A stretch of DNA of 64,000 bases. It comes from Candidatus Pacearchaeota archaeon (GTDB lineage: Archaea; Nanobdellota; Nanobdellia; Pacearchaeales; GW2011-AR1). The stretch's first letter is position 1. The number at the start of each line of letters is the position of its first letter. Below, in pieces: positions 9,887 through 40,771 of the stretch. The stretch lies in assembly GCA_018303825.1 (NCBI GenBank), contig JAGVXK010000018.1, positions 1 through 64,000 of the forward strand, read 5' to 3'. The notes below the pieces were generated by a model that saw only the letters and a list, made by a program, of their open reading frames with translations, had not been told where the DNA came from and ran no database searches. The position numbers and the translations under genes were made by a program.

Positions 9887-9988
9887 TGTATTGTTGCGTC
9901 TTAGGGTGTTATCAACAATAAGAAGAAATTTAAACTATAAACGTGGAAAGGAAAACTATAAAATTGGTTGATTCTTATAAAATCTAAC

Positions 9989-10627
9989 ATGGAATATATT
10001 AAACCTGAATTTGAAAAAGAAGATTTCCATTGTCCTTTTTGTGGAGTTCATACTCACCAAATTTGGGGAGATATTTTAGAAAATGCGAGTATTGACGGTA
10101 GTGGTTGGCACCACATGCCTAATTTTAAAGGCGCCTTGTGCAATAAGTGTAAAGAAATCTCTATCTGGAAGAGCGGTAAATTAATTTACCCAGACAATCC
10201 AAACATATCTCCGCCAAATGAAGACTTAGAAGAAGATATAAAGTTAGATTATAATGAAGCTGCGAGCATTGTTGAAAAATCTCCAAGAGCCGCAGCAGCT
10301 CTATTAAGATTGGCTATAGAAAAGTTATGCAAACAACAGCTTGGAGAAAAAGGAAAAGACCTTGATGAGTGTATAGGCAGTCTAGTAAAAAAAGGTTTGC
10401 CTGTAAAGATTAAAGAAGCATTAGATGTTGTAAGAGTAATAGGAAACGAATCTGTTCATCCAGGAGAAATTAATCTTAATGATAATAAAGATGTGGCACA
10501 TAAACTATTTGAGTTAGTTAATATTATTGCACAAGACAGGATAACACAACCAAAAGAAGTTTCAAAGTTATATAATTCATTGCCTCAGGATAAACTTGAT
10601 GGGATTAATAATAGAGATAAAAAGTAA
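9989..10627 (+). CDS. DUF4145 domain protein with N-terminal Zn ribbon
   Basis: CPFC..CNKC, then Y.EA......SPRAAAALLRLAIE.L and ALDVVRVIGN.SVH.G.I; ATG 9989. Confidence 0.8.
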   Translation: MEYIKPEFEKEDFHCPFCGVHTHQIWGDILENASIDGSGWHHMPNFKGALCNKCKEISIWKSGKLIYPDNPNISPPNEDLEEDIKLDYNEAASIVEKSPRAAAALLRLAIEKLCKQQLGEKGKDLDECIGSLVKKGLPVKIKEALDVVRVIGNESVHPGEINLNDNKDVAHKLFELVNIIAQDRITQPKEVSKLYNSLPQDKLDGINNRDKK

Positions 10628-10637
10628 TTTATCATTC

Positions 10638-11516
10638 TTAAAGTTTAGACAATCTAATTAATCCAATCCATTTATTTACTCCTAAATCTAAGAACGGAAT
10701 GGCTTCTTCTTGAGGAGTTTTATTATCTATTTCCTGATGTTTTCTAACATAGTTATAGTAGATTTCCATACCCTTCATTATCATCTTGGCAGAATATAAA
10801 GAACCATGAAAGCCACGCATTATTTTAGTTCTATCTCTTATCGTGTTGTGCAACCTTTCTATCTTGTGGTTAAATCCTCTTTCGTCTGCTTTCACTCTGT
10901 TATGAATAGGCCTTTCTCCATTTTTGAATTTATTATTAACTCCAAAAGAATATCGTAATGCTTTAGGATAAGAAAGTAAACAATCTGTTGTGATAACCTT
11001 TACAGGTTTAGTTATTATCTTTCTTCTATGCTTCAGTATTCTTGTTATATCATCTAAAGTTCTGCTTTGAATAAATTCAGAACTTACAATAAATCTTGTA
11101 GAAGTGTCCATTACATCAACAAACCAATTTTGCCTTCCAAGACGCTTATACTCCATTTCATCACTCATTAACTCTTGTCCATTCTCAACTTGTAAGTTAT
11201 CAGTTAATCTGCTCATCATTTGAGAATACTTTACAAGCCATCTGTAAATAGTAGAATAATGACAGTTCTTAGGATAGAACATTTTAAGATGTGCCTGTAT
11301 TTTTCTTAAAGACATTCCAGAATAATACATGTCTATTGAAGCTGTAACCTTATGCTCTGTGTTTTTCATCTTCCAGAAACCATCATCTATAGAAAATCTA
11401 TTCTTGCAATTAGCGCACTTATATCTTTGAACATTACCTCTGTTTTTTGTTTCTCTAACTCCATCTTTCTTAATGCTTTTTCCGTTACATTTTTGGCAGA
11501 TTATTTCTTGTCTCAT
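10638..11516 (-). CDS. DDE transposase, archaeal IS6-like, with N-terminal Zn ribbon/HTH
   Basis: CxxC..RYKCxxC, SDEM, VMD..TRF, TDCL.SY, NHKIERLHNTIRDR, YYNY.R.H, KTP.E. Confidence 0.88.
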   Translation of the reverse strand: MRQEIICQKCNGKSIKKDGVRETKNRGNVQRYKCANCKNRFSIDDGFWKMKNTEHKVTASIDMYYSGMSLRKIQAHLKMFYPKNCHYSTIYRWLVKYSQMMSRLTDNLQVENGQELMSDEMEYKRLGRQNWFVDVMDTSTRFIVSSEFIQSRTLDDITRILKHRRKIITKPVKVITTDCLLSYPKALRYSFGVNNKFKNGERPIHNRVKADERGFNHKIERLHNTIRDRTKIMRGFHGSLYSAKMIMKGMEIYYNYVRKHQEIDNKTPQEEAIPFLDLGVNKWIGLIRLSKL

Positions 11517-11633
11517 CTTATTATTACTCTTATAAGTTATACTTAACTAAGTAAGTAGAAGTGTATAAACCTTTCGGTAGTAGAGTATAACCTAAATCGG
11601 TAAGTTTAAATACTTTAATAATATTAATTAATC

Positions 11634-11786
11634 ATGGCGGAAATAACCATACAAATAAAGGGGTATAAATGCGAGAGGTGTGAGCATGAGTGGGTTCCGA
11701 GAGCAAAAGAGTATCCTACTATCTGCCCCTCTTGTAAATCTCCCTATTGGGATAAATTAAGAAGAAACGAGAGAGGTAAACAATGA
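11634..11786 (+). CDS. 50-aa Zn-finger microprotein (not in ORF track)
   Basis: MAEITIQIKGYKCERCEHEWVPRAKEYPTICPSCKSPYWDKLRRNERGKQ*; upstream AAGTTTAAATA box; ATGA overlap with the MTase start. Confidence 0.8.
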   Translation: MAEITIQIKGYKCERCEHEWVPRAKEYPTICPSCKSPYWDKLRRNERGKQ

Positions 11787-38750: not shown

Positions 38751-39680
38751 ACAATAGTATAGCTGGTCAATCAGTAGATTTATATATTTCTTCATCTTCA
38801 TTTAATCGTGAGATTAGTATCCAAAAAAAAAAGAAACAAAGAGAATTAATCGACAAAGAAAAAAATACTTTAAACCTTAGCTTTCCAAAGCTAGCGAAAA
38901 GATTAAACATAAAACCAGGTAAGTTGACAGGATTTTACTATGATAATGTTCTCATGCCAGAAGACCTATTTCAAAAATTTATCCTAAAATAAAAATATAA
39001 AAAATTCATCATCGATAAAAAAGATGAAAATTGGGGAAGATCAAAAGGGGGCAAAAATTCTCAAGGAAGGTATATTAAAAAAATAGAATTACCACCAGAA
39101 TCGGTGAAGTTGGCAGAATTTTTTGGAATTATGCTCGGAGATGGAAACCTAACTAAAATAAAAAAGTACAAAATAGCTAACTATCAAATAAGAGTTGTTG
39201 GAGACTCTCGATATGACAAAGAATATCTAATAAACTACGTTCAACCCCTGATAAAACAACTATTTGGAGGAGTTAAAGTCAACATCAAAAAACAAAATTT
39301 TAAGAATGGTCTAAATGTTACAGCATATGGATTAAGATTAGTCGAATTTTTAGAAAGTAAGGGATTTAAACCTGGAGATAAAATAAGAAATCAAACAACA
39401 ATTCCAAGTTGGGTAAAAACAAATCCAAAATTTCTTAGAGCTTGTTTATGCGGATTATATGATACTGACGGTTCTGTTTACAAATTGACTAATCAAAATT
39501 CTTTTCAATTTAGCTTCAGAAACTACAATTTCACCCTTATCAATGATGTACGAAATAGCCTTCTTTCCATGAATATCAATTGCTCAAAAATCTCGAAAGG
39601 CAATGAGATAACTATAACCAAAAAGTCTGAATTACGGTTCTGTTAAATTAAAAGGTGATATTTTGTCTAAACAAAATATC

Positions 39681-40511
39681 TTACCTTGACTGAATTATCA
39701 TAGGAATCTGCTCCCATTCTATCTTGACTTCTTCTTTCTCTCCGTGTGGCATGAGATAATTGTAGTGCATCGCAAAGAAATCAATCCAAATATTTGCTGT
39801 CTTAAAACTTTTTAACCCTCGACAAACGTGAAGCCAGAGAGCAAAAAATCCGTTTATTCTTTCTATTTTGTTGTTGCTCAACAACAAAATTCTTTTATCT
39901 ATTACAACTCCCTTCTTTTCAAAATGTGCAACAACATGTTTAACATTTCTTCTAAAAATCTTTGTTGCAGATTTATATCCCTGTAAACCATCTGTAACAA
40001 TAACTCTTGGATTAAATCCGGTTCTTTCTCTTGCTTTTCTCAAAACTATCTTCGCACTTTCAGCATCTCTTCCATTGCTGACGTGAACAGCAATGATGTT
40101 ACTGTCCGAATCAGAAACAACCCATAAATAAGCAAAGTCATCTTTGCTTTTTCTAACTCTGATAAATTTTTCATCAACATGCCAAATATCTGTGAAATTA
40201 ATCAGTTTTTTCTTTTCAATCTCGGAAAGCTTTGGATAAAATTTCATTATCCAATTGTAAACTGAAACGTGAGTCGTTTTGTAAAATTTTAGTTTTTTAA
40301 TTACTCTCTTTACATCTCGTAAAGAGAGAGTATATGAACGCAAATATAGTGCATTCATAATAATATTTTTTGGGGTTCTCATTCTTGCGAATATTCCTTT
40401 TTCGCAAAATCTTCTTTTACAATCTTTACATTTATAACGCTGAATACTCTTATTATCATGTCCATTCTGGACAAAATTGGAAGAGGAGCAGTAGGTGCAA
40501 CAATCTATCAT
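39681..40511 (-). CDS. IS6-family DDE transposase
   Basis: WHVDEKFI, YLW..SD, VTDGL.GY, NNKIERIN; N-terminal Zn ribbon. Confidence 0.92.
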   Translation of the reverse strand: MIDCCTYCSSSNFVQNGHDNKSIQRYKCKDCKRRFCEKGIFARMRTPKNIIMNALYLRSYTLSLRDVKRVIKKLKFYKTTHVSVYNWIMKFYPKLSEIEKKKLINFTDIWHVDEKFIRVRKSKDDFAYLWVVSDSDSNIIAVHVSNGRDAESAKIVLRKARERTGFNPRVIVTDGLQGYKSATKIFRRNVKHVVAHFEKKGVVIDKRILLLSNNKIERINGFFALWLHVCRGLKSFKTANIWIDFFAMHYNYLMPHGEKEEVKIEWEQIPMIIQSR

Positions 40512-40523
40512 CCTCTTCTAATT

Positions 40524-40679
40524 TTATTCTACTATCACAAGGTAAACATCTTTTCCAAGATGTTCTTTAGGGCAATCCACTTTGGCACTCGTGCCAAATG
40601 GAGTAACTTTCCTCTTTAGAAAACCCCGGATATTCTTTACGTTCAGTTCTGTTTTTGGATTTAATTTAATTATCTTCAT
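40524..40679 (-). CDS. DUF2080-family transposon-associated protein, 51 aa (not in ORF track)
   Basis: RKVTPFGTSAKVDCPKEHLGKDVYLVI motif; inside the IS, upstream of the transposase. Confidence 0.85.
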   Translation of the reverse strand: MKIIKLNPKTELNVKNIRGFLKRKVTPFGTSAKVDCPKEHLGKDVYLVIVE

Positions 40680-40757
40680 ATATCTTATAGATATCTCATA
40701 TATTTAAGCTTTTCTGTGCTTATTCATCACCCGTTAACTTTACAGAACCTGAATTAC

Positions 40758-40771
40758 GAAAGTTTTTAAAT
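40758..40771 (+). promoter_or_regulatory. BRE/TATA-like box, probable tRNA-Gln promoter, inside the LAGLIDADG coding tail
   Basis: GAAAG-TTTTTAAAT about 55-65 nt upstream of tRNA-Gln. Confidence 0.5.

Follow-up and report, generated by a model that had tools for sequence, protein, structure and literature searches.

We describe IS6-like DDE transposons in DPANN archaea, a large family whose insertion is directed to host promoters with single-base precision, a targeting that comparison of the target sequences essentially demonstrates. Two members of this family, E1 and E2, lie in the window, the 64,000-nucleotide stretch of a Pacearchaeota contig that was analysed (Table 1). Beside each of them a TATA-like octamer begins 5 nt beyond the target-site duplication (TSD), namely TTTAAATA for E1, starting 14 nt beyond the tip of the terminal inverted repeat (IR), and TTTTTAAA for E2, which encloses the TTTAAAT at 40765 that an initial annotation of this DNA had recognised as a TATA box. 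As 58 of 61 relatives share this distance with E1 and E2, the family aims at promoters.

Table 1. Features of the elements E1 and E2 and of their flanks
Feature	Coordinates	Strand	Basis or remark
E1 TSD, left copy, 9 bp, GCTATCGCA	9878-9886		exact 9-mer match to 13378-13386
E1, IS6-like	9887-13377		bounded by IR and 9-bp TSD
E1 left terminal IR, starts TGTATTGTTGCGTC	9887-9910	+	24 nt
E1 passenger: DUF4145 protein	9968-10627	+	Pfam PF13643, E=5e-19
E1 transposase, 292 aa	10638-11516	-	N-terminal CxxC...CxxC zinc ribbon and DDE domain
E1 small zinc-ribbon protein, 50 aa	11634-11786	+	divergent from transposase; weak Zn_ribbon_8 match
E1 passenger: N4/N6 DNA methyltransferase	11783-12679	+	Pfam N6_N4_Mtase, E=1e-50
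E1 passenger: ThaI-type restriction endonuclease	12683-13315	-	Pfam PF15514, E=4e-79, full length
E1 right terminal IR	13354-13377	-	24 nt
E1 TSD, right copy, promoter-proximal	13378-13386		exact 9-mer
Spacer AAAGG, BRE-like	13387-13391	+	5 nt, between E1 TSD and TATA octamer
TATA box TTTAAATA of membrane-protein operon	13392-13399	+	
Membrane-protein trio, gene 1, leaderless	13421-13927	+	ORF list; spacing to TATA
LAGLIDADG-type ORF, 5' part, split by E2	39104-39635	+	Pfam LAGLIDADG_3, E=8e-7
E2 TSD, left copy, 8 bp, TGAATTAC	39628-39635		
E2, IS6-like	39636-40749		bounded by IR and 8-bp TSD
E2 terminal IR, starts GGTTCTGTTAAATT	39636-39659	+	24 nt
E2 transposase, 276 aa	39681-40511	-	Pfam DDE_Tnp_IS240, E=1e-17, 64.6 bits (cut-off 27)
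E2 DUF2080 transposase-associated small protein	40524-40679	-	Pfam PF09853, E=1e-21; NCBIfam NF033496
E2 terminal IR, promoter-proximal end	40726-40749	-	24 nt
E2 TSD, right copy, 8 bp	40750-40757		
Spacer GAAAG	40758-40762	+	5 nt, between E2 TSD and TATA-like octamer
TATA-like octamer TTTTTAAA	40763-40770	+	start 13 nt from E2 IR tip
tRNA-Gln(UUG)	40824-40898	+	ARAGORN; downstream of the box kept at E2

The IS6-like family of E1 and E2

E1 and E2 are members of one family, and their being parts of a composite transposon is ruled out by transposases only 21-22% identical, differing IRs and a separate TSD for each. The two IRs of E1 differ at 2 of 24 bp and those of E2 at 4 of 24; the E2 end occurs 7 more times in the genome, in part as 125-bp MITE-like copies. 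The E1 transposase matches Pfam DDE_Tnp_IS240 (PF13610) at 29.8 bits (cut-off 27) as well as rve_3, and that of E2 additionally has an IS1/IS1595-type zinc-binding domain. For all three transposases tested the best-scoring NCBIfam family is the IS6 equivalog model NF033587, but their scores (65 bits for E1, 119 for E2, or 118.6 unrounded, and 84 for the third) fall below its 125-bit cut-off. The IS256 model reaches 24 bits only, and Pfam and NCBIfam both group these enzymes with IS6/IS240. C7/C10/C34/C37, D119, D178 and E220 of the E1 transposase are invariant in 36 relatives, and conservation of the zinc ribbon and of the HTH region extends over the clades having the common target. Of 74 elements 71 have TGT as bases 6-8 of the IR, and the TSD is 8 bp in E2 and 42 of 67 relatives and 9 bp in E1 and 24 relatives. 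The encoded small proteins vary with clade, AbrB/MazE-like in 38 elements, a zinc ribbon in 13 of 61 (the homologues of the E1 protein) and DUF2080 in 1. Most elements have passenger genes aboard and are 2-6.8 kb long.

These features recall the long zinc-finger branch of IS6/IS26, the ISCpe7 group (clade h in Varani et al. 2021, PMC7986276; clades VII-VIII in Harmer and Hall 2019, PMC6807381), with which the family shares the DDE_Tnp_IS240 catalytic domain and an N-terminal CxxC zinc finger. ISCpe7-type transposases, including plasmid-borne ones compared with that of E2, are the nearest annotated relatives, at 28% identity. The short terminal IRs agree in part: an IS6 end begins with GG and has G as its seventh base (Harmer and Hall 2019, PMC6807381), and of these two marks E2 (GGTTCTG) has both and E1 (TGTATTG) the G alone. 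The 8-bp TSD of E2 and of the largest clade is that of IS6/IS26, whereas the E1 clade differs with 9 bp. The 2021 review of IS6 lists a single passenger-carrying member, and we found no report of target specificity in it (PMC7986276); in the present family, by contrast, passengers are the rule and promoters are targeted to the base. On a contig from another sample (L289) the left junction of E1 is joined to a different right flank. This is the sole hint of a replicative cointegrate, recombination of two copies or an assembly join being equally possible.

[quoted passage not shown]

The comparison set comprises 61 independent IR- and TSD-bounded relatives from about 60 Woese- and Pacearchaeota genomes, no two with like target flanks, and a match was counted where a TATA octamer with at most one mismatch lay 12-15 nt from an IR tip. 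Against about 10% expected, 58 of the 61 elements match (binomial P~8e-54). Among the elements with an 8-bp TSD, 30 of 33 have the first base of the octamer at offset 13 from the IR tip, and all 20 of those with a 9-bp TSD have it at 14 or 13; therefore the spacer between TSD and TATA box is 5 nt in most, whatever the stagger, although a minority of the elements with 9 bp have 4 nt. Strand transfer is thus staggered by 8 or 9 bp according to clade, and the cut nearer the promoter is made 5 nt before the TATA box, so that the duplicated segment spans about -13/-14 to -6 from the TATA start. This target is common to transposase clades only 21-35% identical, with differing IRs and TSD lengths. 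When contigs encoding exactly the same proteins as the genes flanking E1 and E2 were looked up, no empty site was found, all contigs crossing the junctions carrying E1 or E2.

The initial annotation had cautioned that two cases in an AT-rich genome might reflect chance. Such a coincidence is now vanishingly improbable: GC is 34% and the two strands of the 806-kb genome together contain about 650 copies of TTTAAAT (299+349), but for a random site the probability that one lies 3-7 nt past a TSD, to the left or to the right, is P=0.004 per element. Two more bounded elements of the same genome, on contigs C17 and C20, are arranged alike, making 4 of 4, and the wider set puts the matter beyond that caveat. 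We also consider it very unlikely that there is no true targeting and that a mere preference for AT-rich or bendable DNA is followed by purifying selection sparing the intergenic, mostly promoter, copies. The coding density is indeed very high, and every copy studied is a fixed survivor, but selection cannot produce one dominant offset and a constant spacer under two TSD lengths, and elsewhere in these flanks the background of TATA matches is 1.3% per position. The offset histogram itself contradicts such a filter, misplaced IR/TSD calls being unlikely given 4 matches in 174 in the decoy control of the finder. Moreover, E2 and several relatives trim 8-24 codons from upstream ORFs overlapping the promoter, so selection alone does not account for the pattern. 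The same trimming means that the safe-harbour character first ascribed to these insertions does not hold in pure form.

The targets as promoters

The target logo equals that of 267 leaderless promoters of the same genome, with BRE, TATA and a C-rich +8/+9; both have A at -9, -7, -4 and -3 and C at +8/+9, while -6 is G/A and T is absent from -7. When the TATA core is masked, 51 of 54 targets are still scored as outward-pointing promoters, with a mean of +5.7 bits equal to that of true promoters. An outward ATG-started ORF lies within 200 nt of 45 of the 54, and 22 of these have their ATG 29-31 nt from the first base of the TATA box. The leaderless spacing of 29 nt from TATA to ATG recurs exactly at 94 promoters and nearly exactly at about 270 in the genome bearing E1 and E2, and the ATG at 13421 next to E1 has exactly this canonical spacing. 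By these spacings the membrane-protein trio beside E1 is predicted to be served by the kept promoter. The logo of the 61 elements and the expected TATA-ATG spacing thus bear out both the fixed-distance, promoter-guided insertion proposed earlier and the claim that the downstream gene retains its promoter.

E2 is less canonical. The box next to it is the sole TATA-like one upstream of tRNA-Gln, at 61 nt from the 5' end of the tRNA, against a modal distance of 30-32 nt; for six other tRNA genes of the genome it is 51-72 nt. This box falls within the frame of the interrupted LAGLIDADG ORF (codons F-L-N), which overlaps the tRNA-Gln promoter: when E2 and one TSD copy are deleted in silico the frame stays open 24 codons further, the length that E2 cuts off. 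tRNA genes lie downstream of four more targets (of 54), which is not clearly above their likely share of promoters, and we do not regard them as a favoured target class.

Orientation, polarity and symmetry

The initial annotation had stressed that both insertions have the same orientation relative to the promoter. This is correct for E1 and E2, but in the wider set the TATA box is on the 5' side of the transposase in 35 elements and on the 3' side in 21, and the consensus of the proximal and distal IRs is identical. The flank logo thus has the anticipated positional TATA peak but not a one-sided orientation relative to the transposase: the promoter may face either end of the element, and asymmetry of the ends is ruled out as the determinant. 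What is constant is that the element is always on the BRE side, so that BRE, TATA and gene remain joined. At 7 of the 61 sites TATA boxes lie on both sides, in several cases each 5 nt from the TSD. A preferred spacing of divergent TATA pairs does not explain these sites, that spacing being flat genome-wide. Mimicry of the IR bound by the transposase is likewise ruled out, as the first 22 nt of the IRs are without a TATA-like motif.

How the promoter might be recognised

The reading we favour, though at slightly short of even confidence, is one in which a two-fold symmetric transposase assembly would recognise the promoter as a protein-DNA complex. Archaeal TBP and TFB are homologues of TBP and Brf1-TFIIB, and TFB binds the BRE in the solved archaeal TBP-TFB-DNA complex. 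By analogy with Ty3 integrase and TFIIIB, and with the proposed association of TnGBS with the RNA polymerase holoenzyme, the transposition complex, which selects archaeal core promoters as targets, would read the DNA bent by TBP, with TFB supplying polarity, and dock one helical turn upstream. The element would thereby come to lie in the scarce non-coding DNA of a highly compact genome with the neighbouring gene unsilenced. Its stronger form, in which promoter-bound TBP/TFB physically tethers the IS6-like DDE transposase for integration one helical turn upstream of TATA, is a little more doubtful. A predicted complex of TBP, the TFB core (residues 95-311) and the E1 transposase, with an alignment for each and no controls, scored 0.00, which is neutral on binding. 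Two observations indirectly favour a host-factor step: the small proteins differ by clade at a constant target, and all information in the target logo, even that some two helical turns away from the middle of the duplication, is promoter information.

Direct read-out of the DNA, which fits the promoter-targeting data equally well, is as plausible as the tether. Here a transposase domain left free in the synaptic complex, the N-terminal zinc ribbon or the HTH, would bind BRE/TATA or its unusually deformable shape and set the active sites one helical turn away, a host protein being unneeded. The target motif is short, AT-rich and very well conserved, the zinc ribbon and HTH region is conserved in the clades sharing it, and both orientations and the double-TATA sites would suit a symmetric dimer whose two reading heads are equivalent. 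The E2 box lies in a coding frame and at an unusual distance from its tRNA; therefore promoter-like sequence may suffice. The proximal cut (-6/-5) is inside the BRE, the expected seat of TFB, which may be sterically awkward on a TFB-bound promoter. Against this, the promoter features from -9 to +9 exceed the usual reach of a small domain, and clades at 21-35% identity would all have to retain one specificity. The almost absolute polarity (51 of 54) is a further difficulty: the TATA core is nearly palindromic, so direct read-out requires recognition of the BRE or selection. Purifying selection could produce the constant outward polarity, since an insertion that separates a TATA box from its gene would inactivate the latter, and this weighs against the host-factor reading; the data are fixed insertions in assembled genomes and so are shaped by survivorship.

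Precedents and implications

Promoter-tethered integration is a classic theme of eukaryotic retroelements. Ty3 is an LTR retrotransposon whose integrase is positioned by TFIIIB at the transcription start site of Pol III genes, and Ty1 and Tf1 are other factor-tethered elements. Like Ty3, the E1/E2 family integrates at a set position with respect to an initiation complex that contains TBP (predicted here), and the targets of both include tRNA genes, here those of E2, of the L289 variant and of 4 among the 54 in the set. Unlike Ty3, it consists of DNA transposons that insert upstream of the BRE, and the tether, demonstrated for Ty3, is one that we infer. The known prokaryotic cases are, to our knowledge, confined to one group, the bacterial Mutator-like elements.

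The nearest precedent is bacterial TnGBS/ISLre2. For TnGBS ICEs, ISLre2 and ISKra4, insertion is 15-17 bp upstream of sigmaA promoters (Guerillot et al. 2014, PMC3942029). They too are DDE transposons with a constant distance to a core promoter element, upstream of which they integrate without damage to the promoter, those with symmetric IRs do so in both orientations, and contact of TnGBS/ISLre2 with a host transcription factor is a proposal, as it is here (PMC3942029). Fixed-distance insertion is a behaviour in common, not a sign of family membership: their transposases are Mutator-like (p-MULT), unrelated to the IS6/IS240-type; their reference is the sigmaA -35 box at 15-17 bp (TnGBS/ISLre2) rather than the archaeal BRE/TATA at 5 nt; and most TnGBS-type elements have a single orientation. 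The precise promoter habit thus has precedents in some bacterial and yeast elements, and we found none for archaea or IS6 in searchable papers. The earlier statement that no description was known holds to that extent but had overlooked the bacterial elements (PMC3942029).

What is new is the habit in a different transposase family, in archaea, at the BRE/TATA promoter common to archaea and eukaryotes, and across about 60 genomes. If tethering by TBP/TFB is true, it would be a prokaryotic DNA-transposon counterpart of Ty3-TFIIIB targeting, one that relies on the ancestral version of the initiation machinery of eukaryotes and occurs in the smallest archaeal genomes known. With just one transposase, two short IRs, TBP and TFB, the family offers a simple system for testing whether a transposase reads the initiation complex or its DNA. 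The insertions also provide a free and precise promoter marker for annotating uncultured archaea and suggest a route to site-directed insertion tools in archaea. Promoter targeting would further explain how gene-carrying transposons persist in DPANN genomes of 0.5-1.5 Mb with almost no spare DNA. Passenger-bearing IS6-like elements are common in these genomes, and their cargo includes restriction-modification systems and surface proteins.

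Structure and cargo of the two elements

The IS6-like elements E1 and E2, bounded by terminal inverted repeats (IRs) and target-site duplications (TSDs), encode transposases with an identity of only 21-22% (see table). As the E1 IRs enclose restriction-modification genes among five genes in all, E1 is a restriction-modification-bearing transposon rather than a plain insertion sequence. Its cargo (9968-13315), a complete ThaI-type restriction-modification pair with the DUF4145 gene and the small zinc-ribbon gene, makes it an IS6-like transposon with a defence system as passenger. 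Two more bounded IS6-like elements of the source genome, on contigs C17 and C20, display the E1/E2-type arrangement. Among the passengers of the C17 element is an IS200-type Y1 transposase gene (locus L001, 12254-12691; Pfam Y1_Tnp, E=3e-29), which is a case of one mobile element's transposase within another.

Elements and associated features in the window and in other contigs (C) of the source genome
Feature	Position	Strand	Size	Details
E1	9887-13377		3,491 bp	24-bp IRs, two mismatches; perfect 9-bp TSD GCTATCGCA
E1 transposase		minus	292 aa	zinc ribbon and DDE_Tnp_IS240 domain
E1 DUF4145 gene	inside IRs
E1 zinc ribbon gene	inside IRs		50 aa
E1 N4/N6 DNA methyltransferase gene	inside IRs
E1 ThaI-type restriction endonuclease gene	inside IRs			full-length
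Box past E1 right TSD	13392-13399			AAAGG, then TTTAAATA
E2	39636-40749		1,114 bp	24-bp IRs, four mismatches; 8-bp TSD TGAATTAC
E2 transposase			276 aa
E2 DUF2080 gene
Box past E2 right TSD	40763-40770			GAAAG, then TTTTTAAA
tRNA-Gln	start 40824			downstream of E2
C17 element	C17:12091-14842
C20 element	C20:11460-15614
MITE-like copies	C17:5037-5161; C2:54957-55081		125 bp	E2-type ends; 8-bp duplications
Solitary E2-type repeat ends	C5:24783; C8:7843; C9:4583; C20:44363; C22:14074
Solitary C17/C20-type repeat end and adjoining ORF	C13:68935-69570			CGAGCTGTAAAGTTAACG; just outside the window
tRNA (ARAGORN)	52525-52615	minus	91 nt	no isotype call; adjoins tRNA-Val

A fixed distance between element and TATA box

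Past the right TSD of both E1 and E2, a short spacer is followed by a TATA octamer, just as the initial annotation had described. At a random site of the source genome (806 kb, 34% GC), the chance of TTTAAAT lying 3-7 nt past the duplication on either side is 0.004. We then assembled a wider set of elements. A domain search of the order to which the source belongs recovered the IS240 domain in 127 of 401 genomes; 100 loci were fetched from these 127, a scan of species-representative genomes contributed 80 more and metagenomes 10, the named records being MAGs of Woesearchaeota, Pacearchaeota, Nanoarchaeota and Aenigmatarchaeota. Boundaries were defined by an 18-nt inverted repeat with at most 4 mismatches lying between exact direct repeats of 8-10 bp, and could be set for 80 of 174 transposase copies (4 when a decoy with reversed repeat was required). 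With the conserved TGT (repeat positions 6-8) as anchor for the ends and duplicates dropped, the final set comprised 61 elements from 60 loci, no pair of which had similar target flanks. Beside the transposase, 52 of the 61 code for a small putative DNA-binding protein, namely an AbrB/MazE-like protein (38), a zinc ribbon like that of E1 (13) or DUF2080 (E2 only), which may serve a regulatory, an antitoxin-like or an accessory function.

Measured from the IR tip, TTTAWAWA with at most one mismatch starts at offset 13 in 43 instances, at 14 in 16 and at 15 in 8, over a background of ~1.5 per offset. Such a box is present on at least one side of 58/61 elements (one side only in 51, both in 7), against an expectation of ~10% derived from those same flanks (binomial P~8e-54). 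The initial observation is thus confirmed and greatly strengthened, and with it the proposal of promoter-guided insertion. The offset shifts with the length of the duplication, being 13 in 30/33 elements with an 8-bp duplication, and 14 (14 elements) or 13 (6) in those with 9 bp; hence, irrespective of the stagger, duplication and box are mostly 5 nt apart, with 4 nt in a minority of the 9-bp elements. The duplicated segment spans about -13/-14 to -6 from the TATA start, which places the promoter-proximal cut on the upstream border of the BRE, between -6 and -5; being duplicated, it leaves the gene its native sequence up to -13/-14.

The peak at offset 13/14 is sharp, and both sides of the transposase are used: the box lies on its 5' side in 35 elements, on its 3' side in 21 and is tied in 5. 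As the promoter-proximal and distal repeats also share one and the same consensus, the element inserts either way round, and the fixed orientation seen in E1 and E2 is not general. At seven of the 61 sites (L059, L154, L165, L142, L104, L216 and L041) TATA boxes flank the duplication on both sides; in several of these each box is 5 nt from the TSD, giving back-to-back promoters 18-19 bp apart, and no preferred spacing of divergent boxes was seen genome-wide. Together with the free orientation, these sites fit a two-fold symmetric complex, irrespective of whether the promoter is read through host factors or directly.

On a contig from another metagenome sample (L289, 6457-10020), the left junction is identical to that of E1, with a PRC gene followed by the TSD GCTATCGCA. 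The right end reads TTAGATTAC, ATAGC and TTTTTAAA, again with canonical spacing, followed by 23 nt, a tRNA gene, and genes for DHFR and thymidylate synthase. The arrangement may reflect a recombination-joined second copy at a tRNA promoter, a product of intramolecular transposition or an assembly join.

The boxes are those of promoters

Promoter architecture in the source genome shows extreme regularity: 94 long ORFs have a perfect TTTAWAWA (~270 with one mismatch) whose first base is exactly 29 nt upstream of the ATG, and the box of most tRNA genes lies 30-32 nt upstream of the mature 5' end. This fixed 29-nt spacing implies mostly leaderless transcripts and sharply defined promoters; the box beside E1, 29 nt from the ATG at 13421, is thus a textbook case. 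The promoter logo of this genome, with A at -9, -7, -4 and -3, G/A at -6, no T at -7 and C at +8/+9, is matched by the logo of 54 reconstructed insertion targets. Even with the TATA core excluded from scoring, 51 of these 54 are recovered as outward-facing promoters, with a mean advantage of 5.7 bits, equal to that of true promoters. An outward ATG-started ORF lies within 200 nt in 45 of the 54, beginning 29-31 nt from the TATA start in 22 of them, and tRNA genes lie downstream in four further targets.

The E2 box is 61 nt from tRNA-Gln, where 30-32 nt is the modal distance; no other TATA-like box lies upstream of this gene, and comparable distances (51-72 nt) occur at six other tRNA genes of the genome. 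Upon removal of E2 and one TSD copy, a LAGLIDADG-type frame that begins at 39104 or earlier reads on through the 'TATA' (as codons F-L-N), ending 24 codons further within the tRNA gene, about 9 nt into tRNA-Gln. E2 therefore interrupts this frame, and the earlier view of it as a neutral, safe-harbour insertion does not hold. At least three other elements also truncate, by 8-22 codons, an upstream ORF overlapping the promoter of the next gene; hence, it is the promoter, and not avoidance of coding sequence, that sets the landing site. In this region (38747-39646 and 40758-40832), one in-frame TAA (38990-38992) is all that separates the LAGLIDADG-type frame from the upstream ORF 38747-38992; the gene may already have been decaying before E2 inserted.

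How the promoter might be read

We regard promoter targeting by this IS6-like family as good as shown, since it is position-exact, common to clades that differ in repeats and staggers and share only 21-35% identity, and beyond what selection alone could produce. The initial annotation further invoked the host initiation factors TBP and TFB, a part of the proposal that stands as a hypothesis. Under such a mechanism, the transposition complex would recognize the promoter as bent and bound by TBP(/TFB). In favor of it, the target logo contains nothing but promoter information, to two helical turns from the center of the duplicated segment; polarity is nearly absolute despite the near-palindromic TATA core; and the small DNA-binding proteins vary by clade while the target is constant. 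Direct read-out of the promoter by a free transposase domain is only slightly less likely, and has its own support: a zinc ribbon and HTH are kept across the clades, the E2 box lies within a coding frame, and the proximal cut falls in the BRE, to which TFB is bound in the known structure of the archaeal ternary complex. Reading of the TBP(/TFB)-bound, bent complex has, in our estimate, close to an even chance of being correct.

Relationship to known systems

The transposases pass the Pfam IS240 domain threshold, and their nearest annotated plasmid relatives are ISCpe7-type IS6 transposases (28% identity including the zinc finger). Like those of the IS6 family as given by Harmer and Hall (PMC6807381), the repeats have G at position 7. 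We term them IS6-like rather than IS6 because they score under the NCBIfam IS6 cut-off, show 9-bp duplications in the E1 clade and mostly carry passengers, whereas the 2021 review has one such member (PMC7986276). In that review, 'target specificity' occurs in the reference list only, and its available text passages contain no target preference (PMC7986276); likewise, a full-text literature search recovered no account of archaeal or IS6-type elements that target TATA boxes or promoters. The closest published behavior is that of TnGBS, ISLre2 and ISKra4, whose insertion points lie 15-17 bp upstream of the sigmaA -35 box, with RNA-polymerase contact proposed by analogy with Ty3; Mutator-like elements with symmetric repeats resemble those studied here in using both orientations (PMC3942029). 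The targeting is a variant, without a description for archaea or IS6-like elements in the literature searched, of a behavior known from TnGBS-type elements.

The source genome also harbors MITE-like copies and solitary repeat ends (see table). Past the duplication of the MITE-like copy on C17, GATAA is followed by TTTTTAAA. The solitary end on C13 adjoins the promoter of tRNA-Leu, with an offset of 16 nt that is not canonical; inward of it lies an ORF with a putative sigma-70 region-4 HTH-like C-terminus. Within the window, the 91-nt tRNA may contain an intron.
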